In this document: piece by piece, positions 3,701 to 8,243 of the stretch | Numbering within the stretch: the first letter of the stretch is position 1 | Layout of the letters: every line of letters begins with the position of its first letter | UHGV virus genome: UHGV-1698711 | Length of the DNA: 10,724 nt | Strand: one strand, 5' to 3' | DNA from: a virus | Notes under the pieces: generated by a model | Database searches by the model: none | Told to the model about the DNA's origin: nothing | What the model saw: only the letters and a program-made list of their open reading frames with translations | Translations under genes and position numbers: made by a program

Positions 3701-4351
3701 ATGAGCCTGAGTCCCGCACGGCAGCATCGCCTGCGCGTTCAGGCTGAACAGGCCGCCCGCGAGGGCGGCAGTGTTCGCCACGCATCGGGCTATGACCTGA
3801 TGCTGCTGCAACTGGCGGAAGACCGCCGCCGTCTCAAGGGCGTTCAGTCCACGGTCAAAAAAGCGGAAATCAAAGTGGAGCTGCTGCCGAAGTACGCCGC
3901 CTGGGCAGAGGGTGTCCTGGCTGCCGGAGGCGCTCAACAGGATGACGTGCTGATGTACGTGATGCTGTGGCGCATTGATGCCGGAGATTATGCCGGGGCG
4001 CTGGAGATCGGGCGTCATGCCCTGCGTCATGGCTGGGTGATGCCGCTGGGTAACCGCAACGTGCAGACCGTGCTGGCAGAGGAAATGGCAGACGCCGCGC
4101 AGAGCGCAATGCTTGCCGCCACCGGCTTTGATGCCGATCTGTTGCTGCAGACGCTGGAGCTGACAGACGGTCAGGATATGCCGGACCAGTCACGGGCGCG
4201 TCTGCATAAAGCGATTGGCGCGGTCCTGAGTGAAAGCAATCCGGCGTCCGCCCTTAACCATCTCAACCATGCGTTACAGCTCGATCCTCGCTGTGGCGTG
4301 AAAAAAGACAAACAGCAGCTGGAGCGCAGACTGCGCAATGACAGCCGCTGA
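3701..4351 (+). CDS. M: Terminase small (endonuclease) subunit, P2 gpM-like
   Basis: 216 aa ORF starting 3 nt after the N stop, GGAG upstream. Motifs such as LLPKYAAWAEGVL, GAQQDDVLMYVMLWRIDAGDYAGALEIGRHAL and LELTDGQDMPDQSRARLHK resemble P2 gpM. Confidence 0.88.
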   Translation: MSLSPARQHRLRVQAEQAAREGGSVRHASGYDLMLLQLAEDRRRLKGVQSTVKKAEIKVELLPKYAAWAEGVLAAGGAQQDDVLMYVMLWRIDAGDYAGALEIGRHALRHGWVMPLGNRNVQTVLAEEMADAAQSAMLAATGFDADLLLQTLELTDGQDMPDQSRARLHKAIGAVLSESNPASALNHLNHALQLDPRCGVKKDKQQLERRLRNDSR

Positions 4352-4446
4352 CAGAACGTGCCCCCGCGCACGGGCGGCACGGGGTGGCGAAAGGCACTGC
4401 CACATCAAAACCCCGTCCACCGCCCTCTATTTCAGGAGAAAGCAGC

Positions 4447-4911
4447 ATGAAGTTTGTTGCGCCAGAACAGGCACCGGAACAGGCGGAAATCATCAGAAAT
4501 ACGCCGTTCTGGCCTGATGTGGACCTGTCGGAGTTTCGCAGTGTGATGCGCACTGACGGCACGGTGACGCAGCCGCGTTTAAAGCAGGTTGCGCTGTCGG
4601 CAATTTCGGAGGTCAACGCAGAGCTGTATGAGTTTCGCAGACGCCAGCAGATGCTGGGGTATGCCTCGCTGGCAGAGGTTCCGGCGGAACAGCTGGACGG
4701 TAAAAGTGAGCGCATTCAGCACTATTTCAACGCGGTTTACTGCTGGGCACGCGCCATGCTCAACGAGCGTTATCAGGACTATGACGCCACGGCATCCGGT
4801 GTGAAGCGGGGCGAGGAACTGGCGGAAGCAAGCGGTGATTTGTGGCGTGACGCCCGCTGGGCCATCAGCCGGGTGCAGGATGCGCCGCACTGCACAGTGG
4901 AGCTTATCTGA
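4447..4911 (+). CDS. L: Head completion / stabilisation protein, P2 gpL-like
   Basis: Start chosen at ATG 4447 (MKFVAPEQAPEQ...) because AGGAG lies 8 nt upstream. The track's 4384 start would add 21 residues with no ribosome-binding site. Its stop overlaps the X start (TGATG-type overlap at 4909-4913). Confidence 0.85.
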   Translation: MKFVAPEQAPEQAEIIRNTPFWPDVDLSEFRSVMRTDGTVTQPRLKQVALSAISEVNAELYEFRRRQQMLGYASLAEVPAEQLDGKSERIQHYFNAVYCWARAMLNERYQDYDATASGVKRGEELAEASGDLWRDARWAISRVQDAPHCTVELI

Positions 4912-5114
4912 TGAAAGTGCGTGCGTATCAGTATGACACGGTGGACGCGCTTTGCTGGCGTCATTACGGGCGCACGCAGGGTGTCACGGAGCAGGTACTG
5001 AAGGCAAATCCGGGGCTTGCCGAATACGGCCCCTTTTTACCTCACGGGCTGCAGGTGGAGCTGCCGGACATACCGACAACCACCACCGGGCAGACCGTCC
5101 AGCTATGGGACTGA
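4911..5114 (+). CDS. X: Tail protein X, P2 gpX-like (LysM-like domain)
   Basis: 67 aa. MKVRAYQYDTVDALCWRHYGRTQGVTEQVLKANPGLAEYGPFLPHGLQVELPDI closely parallels P2 gpX in length and sequence pattern. Confidence 0.88.
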   Translation: MKVRAYQYDTVDALCWRHYGRTQGVTEQVLKANPGLAEYGPFLPHGLQVELPDIPTTTTGQTVQLWD

Positions 5115-5117
5115 ATT

Positions 5118-5333
5118 ATGACGCTTGAGCGAATCAGCGCCTTTATCACGTACTGCATCGCCGTTGTGCTGGCCTGGCTGGGCGATTTGTCCATCAAGGA
5201 TGCCTCAACGCTGGGCGGCCTGATGATTGGTGTGCTGATGCTGGCTATCAACTGGTACTACAAACACAAAGCCTACCAGCTTCTGCGCGACGGGCAGATC
5301 TCGCGGGAGGACTATGAATCCATCAATCGTTAA
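5118..5333 (+). CDS. Small class II-type holin (two predicted transmembrane helices, charged C-terminus); candidate pinholin
   Basis: 71 aa. Hydrophobic stretches ISAFITYCIAVVLAWLG and LGGLMIGVLMLAINWYY are followed by the charged tail KHKAYQLLRDGQISREDYESINR. It sits in the holin position (after X, before the endolysin) and overlaps the endolysin start by 20 nt. It is shorter than P2 gpY and of a different topology class. Confidence 0.7.
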   Translation: MTLERISAFITYCIAVVLAWLGDLSIKDASTLGGLMIGVLMLAINWYYKHKAYQLLRDGQISREDYESINR

Positions 5334-5826
5334 ACGCTGCCTTGTCGGGACCGTGCTGGCTATTGCTGCCACGCTGCCGGGTTTTCAGCAGCTTCACACC
5401 TCCGTGGAGGGGCTGAAACTGATTGCTGATTACGAAGGCTGTCGTCTGCAGCCGTATCAGTGCAGTGCGGGTGTCTGGACCGACGGCATTGGTAATACAT
5501 CGGGCGTCATCCCGGGCAAAACCATTACGGAACGACAGGCAGCGGAAGGGCTGATCTCCAACGTGCTACGTGTGGAGCGGGCGCTGGAAAGGTGTGTGAA
5601 GCAACAGCCGCCGCAGAAGGTATATGACGCTACGGTGTCGTTTGCCTTCAACGTGGGAACGGGCAGTGCCTGCAGTTCCACACTGGTGAAATTACTCAAT
5701 CAGCGGCGCTGGGAGGATGCATGCCGACAGTTGCCGCGCTGGGTTTATGTAAAAGGTGTGTTTAATCAGGGGCTGGATAACCGCCGTGCGCGGGAGATGG
5801 CCTGGTGTTTACAGGGAGCAAACTGA
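5314..5826 (+). CDS. SAR endolysin, T4-lysozyme fold (glycoside hydrolase family 24), phage P1 Lyz-like
   Basis: 170 aa. The N-terminus MNPSIVKRCLVGTVLAIAATLPG is a weakly hydrophobic Gly/Ala/Thr-rich signal-anchor-release-type segment. The catalytic region ADYEGCRLQPYQCSAGVWTDGIGNT matches my recollection of P1 Lyz (GNAEGCRRDPYMCPAGVWTDGIGNT). GGGAGG ribosome-binding site lies upstream. Confidence 0.9.
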   Translation: MNPSIVKRCLVGTVLAIAATLPGFQQLHTSVEGLKLIADYEGCRLQPYQCSAGVWTDGIGNTSGVIPGKTITERQAAEGLISNVLRVERALERCVKQQPPQKVYDATVSFAFNVGTGSACSSTLVKLLNQRRWEDACRQLPRWVYVKGVFNQGLDNRRAREMAWCLQGAN

Positions 5827-5827
5827 A

Positions 5828-6205
5828 ATGAAAAAGAAATTAATCAGCGGACTGTTTCTGATGTTATGGATGGCGCTGTTAATCGCAGCAATGGTGTATC
5901 CGCAGGGGATTTTTCCGGTACTGGCAGCGTCCGGCGTTTGGGTAGCCTGTTTGCTGACATGGGTGGTAATTCCGGTAGCACTGGCTGCGTTAATTAAGAA
6001 TGGCCCGCTCTGGCAGGAGTTAAGGGCATCTTTGCTGAAGACAATTACCCGAAAAGAAAACGTATTTATCAGTTGGGTGATGCGATTGCTGATTGTCGTC
6101 AGTCTCGCCTGGACGGGGTGGGCTATTACCCTGGTCTTTTATCTGCTGACCGTTATTGCCTTCTGGATCACCCGTAATCAGATGGCGCAACAGGTATCAG
6201 CATGA
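5828..6205 (+). CDS. Multi-pass inner-membrane protein in the P2 lysA position; putative lysis-timing / antiholin-like factor, function unproven
   Basis: 125 aa from ATG 5828 (GGAG at 5815-5818; the track's 5756 start lies inside the endolysin gene). Three to four hydrophobic helices (LISGLFLMLWMALLIAAMV, IFPVLAASGVWVACLLTWVVIPVALAALI, VFISWVMRLLIVVSLAWTGW, AITLVFYLLTVIAFWI). Its stop overlaps the lysB start (ATGA at 6202-6205). Confidence 0.55.
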   Translation: MKKKLISGLFLMLWMALLIAAMVYPQGIFPVLAASGVWVACLLTWVVIPVALAALIKNGPLWQELRASLLKTITRKENVFISWVMRLLIVVSLAWTGWAITLVFYLLTVIAFWITRNQMAQQVSA

Positions 6206-6630
6206 ACCGGTTGCTGCTGGTTGTGCTGGCGTTATTACTGGCGGCGCTGGGCTGGCAGACGTGGCGGCTGGCTGATGCCAGCCAGACCATCAGCACGCAG
6301 GCAGACGAGCTGCAGAGCAAAAGCCAGGCACTGGCAAAGAGCAACAGCCAGCTTATCAGCCTGTCCATTCTGACTGAAACCAATAACCGGGAGCAGGCGC
6401 GGCTCTATGCCGAAGCAGAACAGACCAGCGCGCTGCTGAGACAACGACAACACCGGATCGAGGAACTGAAACGTGAGAACGAGGATTTACGCCGCTGGGC
6501 TGATACTCCTTTGCCTGCTGACATTATCCGGCTGCGGGAACGTCCGGCACTCACCGGAGGTACAGCTTACCGTCAGTGGTTGTCCGCGAGTGACGCCGTG
6601 TCGGCTGGATCAGGCAACGCCGCGCACTAA
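6202..6630 (+). CDS. lysB: i-spanin (Rz-like; P2 LysB equivalent)
   Basis: 142 aa. N-terminal transmembrane segment LLLVVLALLLAALGW is followed by a long charged, coiled-coil-like periplasmic region (QADELQSKSQALAKSNSQL...RIEELKRENEDLRRW). It lies after the endolysin and membrane protein, as in P2. Confidence 0.75.
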   Translation: MNRLLLVVLALLLAALGWQTWRLADASQTISTQADELQSKSQALAKSNSQLISLSILTETNNREQARLYAEAEQTSALLRQRQHRIEELKRENEDLRRWADTPLPADIIRLRERPALTGGTAYRQWLSASDAVSAGSGNAAH

Positions 6631-6763
6631 CGGTGATCTGAACGCGTTGCTGGATGAAACGGAGGCCGCCTGGGCGGTCTGTGCAGACAAAGTGGACATG
6701 ATTATTGCGTGTCAGGAGCGAAACAGTGAACAAACCACAATCCCTGCGCCACGCCCTCAATAA
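6473..6763 (+). CDS. lysC: o-spanin (Rz1-like lipoprotein; P2 LysC equivalent), overlapped in the +1 frame with lysB and extending into R
   Basis: GTG start at 6473. Signal peptide with lipobox (V/M)RTRIYAAGLILLCLLTLSG|C, then a short Pro/Cys-containing mature region. It overlaps the last 158 nt of lysB in another frame and the first 38 nt of R. 96 codons, the size I recall for P2 LysC. Confidence 0.68.
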   Translation: MRTRIYAAGLILLCLLTLSGCGNVRHSPEVQLTVSGCPRVTPCRLDQATPRTNGDLNALLDETEAAWAVCADKVDMIIACQERNSEQTTIPAPRPQ

Positions 6764-7157
6764 AGCGGTGCCTTATGTCCGCAATAACCCGGACAAACTG
6801 CATCTGTTTGTGGATAACGGTTCGCTGGTTGCCACGGGGGCCAGCTCCATGTCGTGGGAGTACCGTTACACCCTGAACGCGGTGATTGAGGATTTCAGCG
6901 GCGACCAGAATCTGCTGATGGCCCCGGTTTTGCTGTGGCTGCGGGATAACCAGCCCGATGCCATCAATAACCCGGCGTTACGGGAAAAACTATTTACCTT
7001 TGAGGTGGATATTCTGCGCAACGATGTCTGTGATATCAGCCTTAACCTGCAACTGACGGAACGTGTGCTGGTCAGCACTGACGGCAGTGTGTCGAGCGTT
7101 GAAGCTGTAGCAGAACCCGATGAACCTGAAGAAATGTGGACGGTGAAACGTGGCTGA
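6726..7157 (+). CDS. R: Tail completion protein, P2 gpR-like
   Basis: Start chosen at GTG 6726 (VNKPQSLRHALNKAVPYVRNNPDKLHLFVDNG...) with AGGAG 7 nt upstream. The track's 6705 position is a TTG. 143 aa. Its stop overlaps the S start. Confidence 0.85.
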   Translation: MNKPQSLRHALNKAVPYVRNNPDKLHLFVDNGSLVATGASSMSWEYRYTLNAVIEDFSGDQNLLMAPVLLWLRDNQPDAINNPALREKLFTFEVDILRNDVCDISLNLQLTERVLVSTDGSVSSVEAVAEPDEPEEMWTVKRG

Positions 7158-7596
7158 ACTGCAGAAGGTGGACGACTGGCTGAGTGCCTTACTGGCGAAT
7201 CTGGAACCAGTCGCAAGAAGCCGCATGATGCGCCAGCTGGCGCAGGAACTGCGCCGGACACAGCAGCAGAATATCAGGATGCAGCGCAATCCAGATGGCA
7301 GCAGTTATGAACCGCGCAGGGTAACAGCACGCAGCAAGAAGGGGCGCATCAAACGTCAGATGTTTGCAAAGCTGCGCACCACAAAATACCTGAAAACTGC
7401 CGCCAGCGCCGACTCTGCCAGCGTACAGTTTGAAGGCAAGGTGCAGCGTATTGCCCGTGTTCACCATTACGGCCTGCGTGATCGCGTCAGTCGCAAAGGA
7501 CCGGAGGTCCGTTACGCAGAGCGCCGCCTGCTGGGTGTAAATGATGATGTTGAGGCAATGACCCGCGACATGATTCTGCAATGGCTGGCGGGGTGA
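7150..7596 (+). CDS. S: Tail completion protein, P2 gpS-like
   Basis: 148 aa ORF from GTG 7150, overlapping the R stop by 8 nt (translational coupling). It is the last gene before the S-V intergenic gap, as in P2. Confidence 0.85.
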   Translation: MAELQKVDDWLSALLANLEPVARSRMMRQLAQELRRTQQQNIRMQRNPDGSSYEPRRVTARSKKGRIKRQMFAKLRTTKYLKTAASADSASVQFEGKVQRIARVHHYGLRDRVSRKGPEVRYAERRLLGVNDDVEAMTRDMILQWLAG

Positions 7597-7599
7597 TCT

Positions 7600-7619
7600 T
7601 TGTATCAGCACTGATACAA
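7600..7619. promoter_or_regulatory. Dyad TTGTATCAG-ca-CTGATACAA containing TGT-N12-ACA; candidate Ogr/Delta-type activator site of the late promoter for the V-W-J-I-H operon
   Basis: 9-bp arms that are exact reverse complements around a 2-nt spacer, read directly from the sequence. TGT is at 7601-7603 and ACA at 7616-7618. It lies in the 68-bp gap between S and V, where P2 places its V-operon late promoter. Confidence 0.5.
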
Positions 7620-7664
7620 GTTGCAGCACTGCCGCCTTTCTTCCCCTGATGGCAACCTTTCCCT

Positions 7665-8243
7665 ATGAACGCACAATTAACCGAAATCATGCGCCTTATC
7701 ACCAACCTGATCCGCACAGGGGTAGTCACCGAAGTGGACAGGGAAAACTGGCTTTGCCGGGTGAAAACGGGCGAGCTTGAAACCAACTGGATCAGCTGGC
7801 TGACGCTGCGTGCCGGGAATGCCCGCACATGGTGGCGACCATCAGAAGGTGAGCAGGTGGTGCTGCTGAGTCTGGGCGGCAATCTGGAAACCGCCTTTGC
7901 GTTACCCGCCATCTATTCGAATCAGTTCGCGCCACCGTCGACGTCGGCGGACGCCTGCGTGACAGAACATCCTGACGGTGGCTGGTTTGAATACGAACCC
8001 GCCACCGGGCGCTGGTATGTCAGGGGCATCAAATCAATGGTCATTGAGGCCGCTGACAACATCACCATGAAAACCAGTGAGTTTGTACTGGAGGCTGACC
8101 GCACGCGCATTAACAGCGAAGTGGTGATCAATGGTGGCGTTACCCAGGGCGGCGGAGCGATGAGTTCTAACGGGATTGTGGTTGATGCGCATCAGCATAC
8201 TGGCGTCCTGAAAGGCGGCGATACAACCGGAGGCCCGGTATGA
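7665..8243 (+). CDS. V: Baseplate assembly / spike protein, P2 gpV-like
   Basis: 192 aa. MNAQLTEIMRLITNLIRTGVVTEVDRENWLCRVKTGELETNWISWLTLRAGNARTWWRPSEGEQV parallels P2 gpV, and a Gly-rich C-terminus is present. Its stop overlaps the W start (ATGA). Confidence 0.92.
   Translation: MNAQLTEIMRLITNLIRTGVVTEVDRENWLCRVKTGELETNWISWLTLRAGNARTWWRPSEGEQVVLLSLGGNLETAFALPAIYSNQFAPPSTSADACVTEHPDGGWFEYEPATGRWYVRGIKSMVIEAADNITMKTSEFVLEADRTRINSEVVINGGVTQGGGAMSSNGIVVDAHQHTGVLKGGDTTGGPV

Follow-up and report, generated by a model that had tools for sequence, protein, structure and literature searches.

Positions 5118–6763 of the window, by which we mean the whole 10,724-nucleotide stretch of the virus genome UHGV-1698711, very probably represent the lysis cassette of a P2-like (Peduoviridae) Klebsiella/E. 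coli prophage of the 4LV2017/Cartapus/Fels-2 type, with a LysA protein that most likely delays holin triggering. Five genes are encoded in the order HP1-family class II holin, P1-Lyz-like SAR endolysin, LysA-family protein and LysB/LysC spanins. This cassette is already known, near-identical ones having been deposited and partly annotated, and it leaves the knowledge of phage lysis unchanged. An earlier note on the same DNA, made from the letters alone, had set its lysis genes apart from those of P2 and had described the third of them as an unassigned multi-pass membrane protein, whose identity and role are therefore treated in most detail below.

Layout of the cassette and its closest relatives

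Three open reading frames fill positions 5118–6205 and encode the 71-aa holin, the 170-aa SAR lysozyme and a 125-aa membrane protein. This trio is flanked by the tail gene X on one side and by the LysB/LysC spanins on the other, and all of these genes lie on the plus strand. Gene X (4911–5114, PF05489 Phage_tail_X, E = 5.9e-34), which encodes a tail/baseplate protein, marks the upstream edge of the cassette and ends with a stop codon 3 nt ahead of the holin ATG. The holin gene (5118–5333) has one Met start codon, directly after the X stop, does not contain a dual-start motif and overlaps by 20 nt with the endolysin gene (5314–5826). Shine-Dalgarno-like motifs were found ahead of 5314 (GGGAGG) and 10 nt ahead of 5828 (GGGAG), where the gene for the 125-aa protein (5828–6205) begins. 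Its stop codon overlaps the start codon of lysB in the motif ATGA at 6202–6205. The Rz-like inner-membrane spanin LysB (6202–6630) reaches 176.6 bits against TIGR03495 phage_LysB, with a cutoff of 92.75, and matches phrog_89, while the Rz1-like outer-membrane lipoprotein spanin LysC (6473–6763) is recognized by NF038368 P2_Rz1 with 123.5 bits and by PF23793 LysC. The lysC gene starts in the +1 frame within lysB, and a lipobox, LSGC, is seen in the LysC translation. Scanning positions 4300–8000 for promoters and terminators returned nothing exceeding shuffled expectation.

The collinearity with P2 that the earlier note had claimed for the backbone is borne out by the gene order M, L, X, then R, S, V, and the 125-aa ORF does occupy the lysA slot, as it sits between the endolysin gene and lysB. 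Equally sound was the statement that the cassette is not of the P2 Y/K type: its holin belongs to PF16080/phrog_20 and its endolysin to PF00959/phrog_7, whereas Y falls into PF04550/phrog_175 and K into phrog_90. The lysis genes are real and under purifying selection, with a pN/pS of 0.07 for the holin and of 0.21 for the 125-aa gene, the latter being intact in 55 of 55 distinct close alleles.

Over positions 4900–6800, the nucleotide identity to Klebsiella phage 4LV2017 is 97.6 %. The cassettes of 4LV2017, Escherichia phages Cartapus and vB_EcoM-813R9, Yersinia phage vB_YpM_MLG42 and Salmonella phage Fels-2 contain the gene families of the window cassette in an identical order, although the lysA slot of the Fels-2 reference is split by a frameshift. 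In vB_EcoM-813R9 the 125-aa gene is annotated as 'lysis regulatory protein, LysA', in Yersinia phage MLG42 the annotation reads 'antiholin; P2 LysA-like', and in Midge it reads 'putative antiholin'.

The holin and the SAR endolysin

The 71-aa protein can be assigned by its family matches to the class II holins of the HP1 family, a type of holin found as a partner of SAR endolysins. The comparison with holin families that the earlier note had proposed gave 36.7 bits against PF16080, above the gathering score of 28.8, and E = 1.9e-26 against phrog_20 'holin'. Its two predicted transmembrane helices also hold up, since the hydropathy profile displays two hydrophobic segments at residues ~6–24 and ~26–48, ahead of a charged C-terminal tail. 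The protein shares 100 % identity with its counterpart in Escherichia phage Cartapus and 80 % with that in Salmonella phage Fels-2. The PF04971 (P21 S) profile scored 23.2 bits, under its cutoff of 26, and the P2 Y family (PF04550/phrog_175), which P2 Y itself matches at E = 2.6e-42, did not match the window holin at all. Pairwise BLASTP of the window holin and endolysin against P2 Y and K likewise returned nothing meaningful.

Hol of Haemophilus phage HP1, the founder of PF16080 and its only characterised member, was found experimentally to be a pinholin working with a SAR endolysin and is the one family member whose holes are known to be small, depolarising and closed to proteins (PMC7312051), from which we infer that the window holin would be a pinholin making small depolarising holes as well. 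HP1 shares with the window the PF16080 holin, the overlap of the holin and endolysin genes without a dual-start motif and a SAR-type GH24 muramidase (PMC7312051). It differs, however, in that this holin/SAR arrangement is not accompanied by a LysA gene, that its lysis genes are located elsewhere in the late region, and that the pairwise similarity of the two holins is not significant (BLASTP, 21 % identity, E = 0.19). A SAR endolysin does not need a pinholin; the holin that works with Lyz in P1 is LydA (PMC9025707).

The 170-aa endolysin matches PF00959 at E = 9.4e-40, and its best solved relatives are the structures of the GH24 muramidase P1 Lyz, 1XJT and 1XJU (E = 4.6e-26). It carries the triad E-x8-C-x5-T (E41, C50, T56) together with both regulatory cysteines, and K7, R8, C9, E41, C43, C50 and T56 are invariant among 10 diverse homologues. 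The N-terminus contains one weakly hydrophobic segment, whose Kyte-Doolittle 19-residue maximum of 1.51 lies just under the threshold of 1.6 for a transmembrane helix. The putative SAR domain, CLVGTVLAIAATLPGF, spans residues ~9–24 (5338–5385, plus strand) as an uncharged, Gly/Ala/Thr-rich run after K7 R8, and this uncharged segment, which is not a strong helix of the signal-peptidase type, is conserved across all endolysin homologues aligned. Cys9 sits inside it at the same relative position as Cys13 of P1 Lyz; C9 and C43 correspond to C13 and C44 in the P1 numbering. Such a segment, along with the invariant C9 and C43, agrees with the earlier designation as a SAR endolysin.

The enzyme is unrelated to P2 K. 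By analogy with characterised relatives, Sec export, tethering, release on depolarisation and a disulfide switch can be expected for it. The triad, the caging Cys two residues past the catalytic Glu and the Cys of the SAR domain are all conserved between the window endolysin and P1 Lyz, a SAR endolysin activated by disulfide isomerisation, whereas the sequence of the SAR domain is unlike that of P1 Lyz, whose partners are the holin LydA and the antiholin LydB (PMC9025707).

The 125-aa protein as a divergent LysA

The family matches identify the 125-aa protein as a full-length member of the LysA family and a divergent copy of the P2 lysA product. It reaches 123.8 bits against NF038378 (cutoff 40), aligning residues 1–123 to positions 1–123 of the 124 in the model, and P2 LysA matches the same model over its full length with 120.9 bits. 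Against phrog_162, which P2 LysA also matches, the window protein obtains E = 1.6e-43. PF28015 'LysA' is the precomputed annotation on all close and distant relatives and is carried by P2 LysA too; it was seen through these precomputed annotations only, and a Pfam model search matched no family to either the 125-aa protein or P2 LysA. When the window LysA subfamily was aligned to the P2 LysA subfamily by hhalign, a probability of 93.3 % and E = 2.7e-7 were obtained over 118 columns (1–122 vs 1–128). Both proteins furthermore share an N-terminal MKK, YPQ at the end of helix 1 and G-W...Y at the turn between helices 3 and 4.

The label 'unassigned' thus does not hold, as curated families exist for this ORF and cover its full length. 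The homology to LysA, which the earlier note could not show by eye, is invisible at that level because the pairwise identity to P2 LysA amounts to only ~18–26 %, but it emerges from the profile searches and hhalign; by the note's own reasoning such homology makes the protein ordinary. In BLASTP the two proteins align with a marginal 29 % identity over 35 residues (E = 0.002), so that the homology rests on profiles. When 1.84 billion representative proteins were searched by phmmer with the single sequence, only 58 matches were obtained, of which the full-length ones measure 125–129 aa, and P2-type LysA (~141 aa) was not among the 58. Taken by itself, pairwise BLASTP against P2 LysA would wrongly favour 'not LysA'.

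The 125-aa protein does not match any of the holin families in Pfam and PHROGs, the PADLOC defence models match neither LysA nor the holin, and a PDB sequence search with the LysA family profile found nothing. A fold search of PDB and BFVD with the AlphaFold2 model gave no significant match, the structures retrieved all being generic helical membrane proteins without a known function. The model itself (mean pLDDT 82.8) comprises four long helices at residues 2–23, 29–56, 79–96 and 99–124 and a short connecting helix at 60–73 and leaves almost no soluble part, in line with the three to four hydrophobic helices proposed before. The hydropathy profile agrees with this model of four transmembrane helices, featuring strongly hydrophobic stretches, and the charge distribution suggests an N-in/C-in orientation by the positive-inside rule.

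P2 LysA (UniProt ANTIH_BPP2) resembles the window protein in its slot between endolysin and lysB, its full-length matches to the same curated models and its four helices. It is, however, longer, with 141 aa vs 125 aa, the window protein having a shorter central loop and C-terminus, and it partners the class I holin Y and the cytoplasmic endolysin K, whereas the window LysA partners a class II holin and a SAR endolysin. Direct genetic support for an antiholin role exists in P2 only, whose class I holin is unrelated to the one in the window.

LysA is the fastest-diverging gene of the cassette, with 35–44 % identity where holin, endolysin and spanin show 70–94 %. In MLG42 and many Klebsiella/Citrobacter prophages, for instance, LysA is ~40 % identical to that of the window, whereas the adjoining genes are 76–94 % identical. 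Five divergent LysA representatives (27–36 % identity) are found in one and the same arrangement of X, PF16080, PF00959, PF28015, lysB, R and S. The window-type holin and endolysin lie alongside the window LysA subtype in 93 of 94 loci. Nearly all loci retrieved by the viral-contig scans were near-identical, so that the two co-occurrence counts, 93 and 79 loci, represent few independent lineages. The remaining locus lacks a holin match and begins within ~90 nt of its endolysin match (L039). The membrane ORF accompanies a SAR endolysin in every complete-cassette locus of the window LysA subtype.

Across phages, the LysA family occurs with both lysis systems: P2 combines it with the class I holin Y and the cytoplasmic K, and in the window, Erwinia phage EtG, Escherichia phage Midge and ENT4 its partners are a SAR endolysin and a class II holin. 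In the latter three phages, the LysA is of the P2 type and the holin beside it of the HP1 type. EtG and Midge share with the window the five-gene order of class II holin, SAR endolysin, LysA, inner- and then outer-membrane spanin, which the authors of Midge annotated as such. They differ from it in a 143-aa LysA of the P2-like subtype, ~40 % identical to P2 LysA and 22–26 % identical to window LysA, and in a holin that is only ~30 % identical to that of the window. The LysA subtype goes with the LysB subtype in EtG. The record of phage 186 shows genes of the Y and K types but lacks a LysA, and the P2 record lists lysA as nonessential, whereas lysis is stated to require Y. The absence of LysA from 186 and HP1 and the frameshifted slot of the Fels-2 reference lend indirect support to a putative non-essential role.

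Proposed role of LysA in lysis timing

In the lysis mechanism we propose by reference to characterised relatives, the Sec system would export the endolysin, whose SAR domain would anchor it in the inner membrane, where a disulfide bond between the catalytic Cys50 and Cys43 would keep it caged. The holin would build up harmlessly in the membrane until triggering, and would then form small depolarising holes. Upon the loss of the proton-motive force, the SAR domain would leave the bilayer, allowing the thiol of Cys9 to isomerise the disulfide, by which Cys50 would be freed and the muramidase activated. LysA would act as a non-essential, wholly membrane-embedded accessory that exerts an antiholin-like delay on holin triggering and in this way tunes the timing of lysis.

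That the window LysA delays holin triggering is the most likely reading, with P2 serving as the model from which we infer both the direction and the target of the timing effect. A P2 lysA amber mutant reportedly lyses slightly early (Ziermann et al. 1994). P2 LysA, with four transmembrane domains (PMC3091744), is treated in the literature as a lysis-delaying antiholin (PMC3091744; PMC13056207). Among the functions offered in the earlier note, an antiholin or lysis-timing factor is thus the favoured one, whereas a second holin and a release factor for the SAR endolysin are disfavoured.

LysA-family proteins might instead be portable, holin-agnostic lysis timers that bind no specific holin and work on a target shared by both lysis pathways, maybe membrane energetics or the coupled spanin. 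Their pairing with both systems, their absence from 186 and HP1 and their fast divergence could point this way, but we regard this reading as unlikely. If this were true, the rapid turnover of LysA might reflect diversifying selection and not drift. Less probable still is a holin-independent timing or envelope factor that acts, perhaps, on membrane energetics or on LysB and not by holin binding. Such a factor would be consistent with the pairing of the LysA family with both holin/endolysin systems, with its dispensability in 186 and HP1, with the coupling of lysA and lysB by the ATGA overlap and with the tracking of LysA and LysB subtypes in EtG. Holins that are 89–94 % identical to each other adjoin LysA proteins that are only 35–43 % identical, which sits uneasily with a binder that is specific to the holin and co-evolves tightly with it; the fast divergence may, however, simply stem from weak constraint on a non-essential membrane protein. 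Among the pairwise-identity matrices the LysA–LysB correlation is the best (Spearman 0.91), but it is tied with holin–LysB, and all pairs are high (0.81–0.91) and confounded by shared ancestry and physical linkage. In addition, no experimental hint ties LysA to the spanin, and in the published view LysA regulates Y (PMC3091744; PMC13056207).

We consider it very improbable that the 125-aa protein is a release factor that helps the SAR domain to exit the membrane, like the 'releasin' gp25 of Mu, even though its gene lies directly downstream of that of the SAR endolysin and every complete cassette with the window LysA subtype contains such an enzyme. The LysA family also serves P2, whose K does not have a hydrophobic N-terminus, and HP1 uses the holin/SAR arrangement without any LysA. 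The loss of P2 lysA reportedly speeds lysis (Ziermann et al. 1994), which is the opposite of the effect of releasin loss and counts against a release factor. Releasins are a documented kind of protein, but in Mu gp25 a single N-terminal transmembrane helix is joined to an acidic cytoplasmic domain of 73 aa (PMC9239132), whereas the window protein has four transmembrane helices and, matching no family in the Pfam model search, has no match to DUF2730 (PF10805).

Just as doubtful is a role as an additional holin or as a subunit that forms the membrane lesion jointly with the holin: the protein is a small multi-pass membrane protein encoded within a lysis cassette, its P2 homologue is sometimes labelled 'holin' in RefSeq-style annotation, and some phages encode two holin-like proteins (PMC9025707; PMC13056207), but it lacks both a holin family match in Pfam or PHROGs and the strongly charged C-terminus that holins typically have, Y and not lysA is the essential gene in the P2 record, and phage 186, with Y and K, and HP1 both lyse without LysA.

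With the delay of holin triggering as the preferred reading, the pairing of a single LysA family with two holin/endolysin systems that are not related offers a natural test of holin specificity. For annotation, we suggest the labels HP1-family class II holin, P1-Lyz-type SAR endolysin, LysA-family putative antiholin and LysB/LysC spanins, in this order. It is worth mentioning that phrog_162, the LysA family, is labelled 'endolysin' in PHROG, an error that has been passed into RefSeq, including the P2 entry, although LysA does not contain an enzymatic domain.

The lysis locus, its holin and its endolysin

The window covers part of the late genes of a P2-like (Peduoviridae) prophage, in which M (3701-4351), L (ending at 4911) and X (4911-5114) are followed by the genes of a holin (71 aa, 5118-5333; PF16080, phrog_20), a GH24 Phage_lysozyme endolysin (170 aa, 5314-5826) and LysA (125 aa, 5828-6205; NF038378, phrog_162), and further by lysB (6202-6630), lysC (6473-6763), which starts in a different frame within lysB, and R, S, V, W, J and I, all on the plus strand. 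The coordinates and lengths that the earlier note gave proved exact. Positions 4900-6800 share 97.6% nucleotide identity with Klebsiella phage 4LV2017 and >97% with about 30 further deposited Klebsiella and E. coli phages, and the whole cassette is already known, being deposited and annotated in public phage genomes. The intergenic gap between S and V measures only 68 nt (7597-7664) in the window, while in close relatives it holds minus-strand cargo genes: an 852-nt hypothetical gene and a 'putative enzyme with ATPase activity' in vB_EcoM-813R9 (L002, 4295-5375), a 258-aa gene in locus L094 (4293-5069) and orf30 in P2 (L001, 3940-4725). The gap seems to be a site of variable cargo, with none in the window.

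The 71-aa protein scores above the gathering threshold of PF16080 'Bacteriophage holin family HP1' (36.7 against 28.8 bits), lies just below the cutoff of the phage 21 S family (23.2 against 26 bits) and matches phrog_20 'holin' with E = 1.9e-26. P2 Y belongs to distinct families, PF04550 and phrog_175, and BLASTP found no meaningful similarity between the two holins. Hydropathy analysis gave two hydrophobic segments and, after them, a charged tail, and as the gene has a single start codon, 3 nt past the X stop, it does not encode a dual-start antiholin. HP1 Hol, the founder of the HP1 holin family, was found experimentally to kill cells without lysis and without beta-galactosidase leakage, is needed for lysis by a SAR endolysin and is a pinholin (PMC7312051). 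Because pairwise comparison of HP1 Hol with the window holin gave E = 0.19 and their kinship holds at the profile level only, we infer, rather than take as demonstrated, that the latter is a pinholin. For two further holins, annotation differs in the chosen start: that of phage EtG (L176, 1287-1508) is annotated from the upstream Met (MGLTMEK...), that of phage Midge (L178, 1807-2016) from the second (MEK...). These two in-frame starts lie four codons apart without a basic residue between them, which is not the classical dual-start motif.

The 170-aa protein is assigned to GH24 'Phage_lysozyme' with E = 9.4e-40, and its closest solved structures are those of P1 Lyz (1XJT and 1XJU, the inactive and active forms; E = 4.6e-26). 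Its N-terminus carries K7 and R8 followed by CLVGTVLAIAATLPGF, which is uncharged and weakly hydrophobic, as in SAR domains. Among ten homologues, down to 61% identity, K7, R8, C9, E41, G42, C43, C50 and T56 are invariant; they include the E-x8-C-x5-T triad together with the caging cysteine and that of the SAR domain. In P1 Lyz these residues bring about activation via disulfide isomerisation. P2 K, a member of phrog_90, has no Pfam match and no hydrophobic N-terminus, and judged from sequence the two endolysins are unrelated. The earlier reading of a pinholin-like protein and SAR endolysin in place of the P2 Y/K type is supported.

Assignment and structure of LysA

The 125-aa membrane protein, which the earlier note had left unassigned, can be identified as LysA by sequence comparison. 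It matches NCBIfam NF038378 over its full length (123.8 bits, cutoff 40) and phrog_162 with E = 1.6e-43, P2 LysA matches both full-length (120.9 bits and E = 1.8e-67), and PF28015 'LysA' is precomputed on relatives of both proteins. When the window-type and P2-type subfamilies were aligned separately and then compared profile to profile, they matched nearly end to end over 118 columns (93.3% probability, E = 2.7e-7). Both proteins share the N-terminal MKK, a YPQ that closes helix 1 and, in the helix 3/4 turn, a G-W...Y motif. Their homology is invisible by eye because pairwise identity is only about 18-26%, and phmmer, run with the single sequence against 1.84 billion proteins, gave only 58 matches, the full-length ones of 125-129 aa, without P2-type (141-aa) LysA. 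Here the interpretation in the earlier note does not hold, and homology to LysA is what, by that note's own account, would make the gene ordinary.

An AlphaFold2 model of the protein consists of four long helices and a short connecting helix (pLDDT 82.8, pTM 0.69). Basic charges are found in the N-terminal MKKK and at five positions in the central loop, and from this distribution an N-in/C-in topology with almost nothing exposed is predicted. The window lysA is under purifying selection, with a pN/pS of 0.21 and all 55 of 55 alleles intact. A GGGAG motif lies 10 nt upstream of its start, and its stop and the lysB start overlap within ATGA. With the in-frame GTG at 5756 as its start, the ORF would be 149 aa long (5756-6205) and reach into the end of the endolysin gene, and such or similar starts are found in the database (P0001, 150 aa; P0003, 149 aa; P0009, 139 aa). 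The MKK N-terminus is nevertheless conserved throughout the family, which favours the ATG at 5828 as true start.

Module pairing and the probable role of LysA

Window-type LysA accompanies window-type holin and endolysin at 93 of 94 loci and P2-type LysA accompanies Y and K at 79 of 81, both sets consisting mostly of near-identical sequences and hence of few independent lineages. The remaining window-type locus, L039, has no holin match, and no more than about 90 nt separate its start from the endolysin match. Five divergent window-type representatives from genomes and metagenomes (27-36% identity) all lie in the arrangement X, PF16080, PF00959, PF28015, lysB, R, S. The pairing of subtype and module is not strict: EtG (Erwinia), Midge (Escherichia) and ENT4 (Enterobacter) combine P2-type LysA, about 40% identical to that of P2, with an HP1-type holin and a SAR endolysin. 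In phage 186 (L181, NC_001317, 2453-3643), P2-type Y and K are directly followed by lysB, and the LysA profile found no match in the six frames of its late region, so LysA is dispensable even in a Y/K-type cassette. HP1 has a pinholin and SAR pair but no LysA. Given this loose pairing and the absences in 186 and HP1, LysA is an optional accessory to either holin/endolysin module.

By analogy to characterised relatives, Sec would export the endolysin, which would stay tethered by its SAR domain and caged by a disulfide, while the holin would accumulate, trigger and depolarise the membrane; release of the SAR domain would then allow disulfide isomerisation through Cys9 to the active enzyme, and wall degradation would be followed by fusion of the two membranes by LysB/LysC. 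A P2 lysA amber mutant reportedly lysed early in a 1994 study, which is one ground on which LysA would most likely delay holin triggering. The other is that P2 LysA is regarded as an antiholin regulating Y (PMC3091744; PMC13056207). Since LysA occurs with two unrelated holin classes, holin-specific binding becomes less likely, and the family is apparently holin-independent. That LysA acts without regard to the holin, on membrane energetics or the spanin, is nonetheless improbable, the patterns behind this idea being confounded by linkage. We disfavour a releasin-like factor, as the 125-aa protein has no DUF2730 match and a topology opposite to that of releasin, its family also occurs beside K, an endolysin that is not of the SAR type, and HP1 lyses without it. 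A second holin is disfavoured by the lack of a holin-family match and of a charged tail, by Y being essential but LysA non-essential in P2, and by the missing LysA in 186 and HP1.

Divergence and annotation of LysA

No gene of the cassette diverges nearly as fast as lysA: between the window and its relatives (L003, L085-L095), LysA is 40-44% identical, against 70-94% for L, X, holin, endolysin, LysB, LysC, R and S. Holins of 89-94% identity adjoin LysA proteins of 35-43% identity, and between L085 and L090 the values are 94% and 35%. The helix 3/4 hairpin (SGW.ITLVFYLLT) is the best-conserved segment and the only one with good conservation, and the divergence reflects either weak constraint outside this hairpin or replacement or diversification of the gene. 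In the Fels-2 reference (L179, NC_010463, 2511-2886), two hypothetical ORFs of 77 and 49 aa are annotated where LysA would be, and the frame break falls on a run of nine G (2684-2692). The joined frames look like a very divergent LysA (GG..R...L...W...LLAGW.LT), while the LysA profile detected neither piece; candidate explanations are a sequencing error, a pseudogene and a slippage-prone tract.

GenBank submitters named the protein 'lysis regulatory protein, LysA' in vB_EcoM-813R9 and 'antiholin; P2 LysA-like protein' in MLG42, and the P2-like subtype of Midge 'putative antiholin'. The family phrog_162 itself is labelled 'endolysin', which was copied to RefSeq for P2 lysA (L001, NC_001895, 2010-2435) and for 4LV2017 (NC_047818, 'endolysin (x2)'); other records call LysA 'holin' or 'lysin'. 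As LysA is a four-helix membrane protein without an enzymatic domain, the 'endolysin' label is a propagating annotation error. In the database proteins P0013, P0018, P0022, P0026, P0029, P0030 and P0061, the LysA domain is fused to unrelated phage domains, including PF06892, PF05926, PF04965, PF06528 and PF05954. These fusions occur mostly on one or a few contigs, with P0013 on 18, and look like artefacts of frameshift, assembly or gene calling instead of real fusions.
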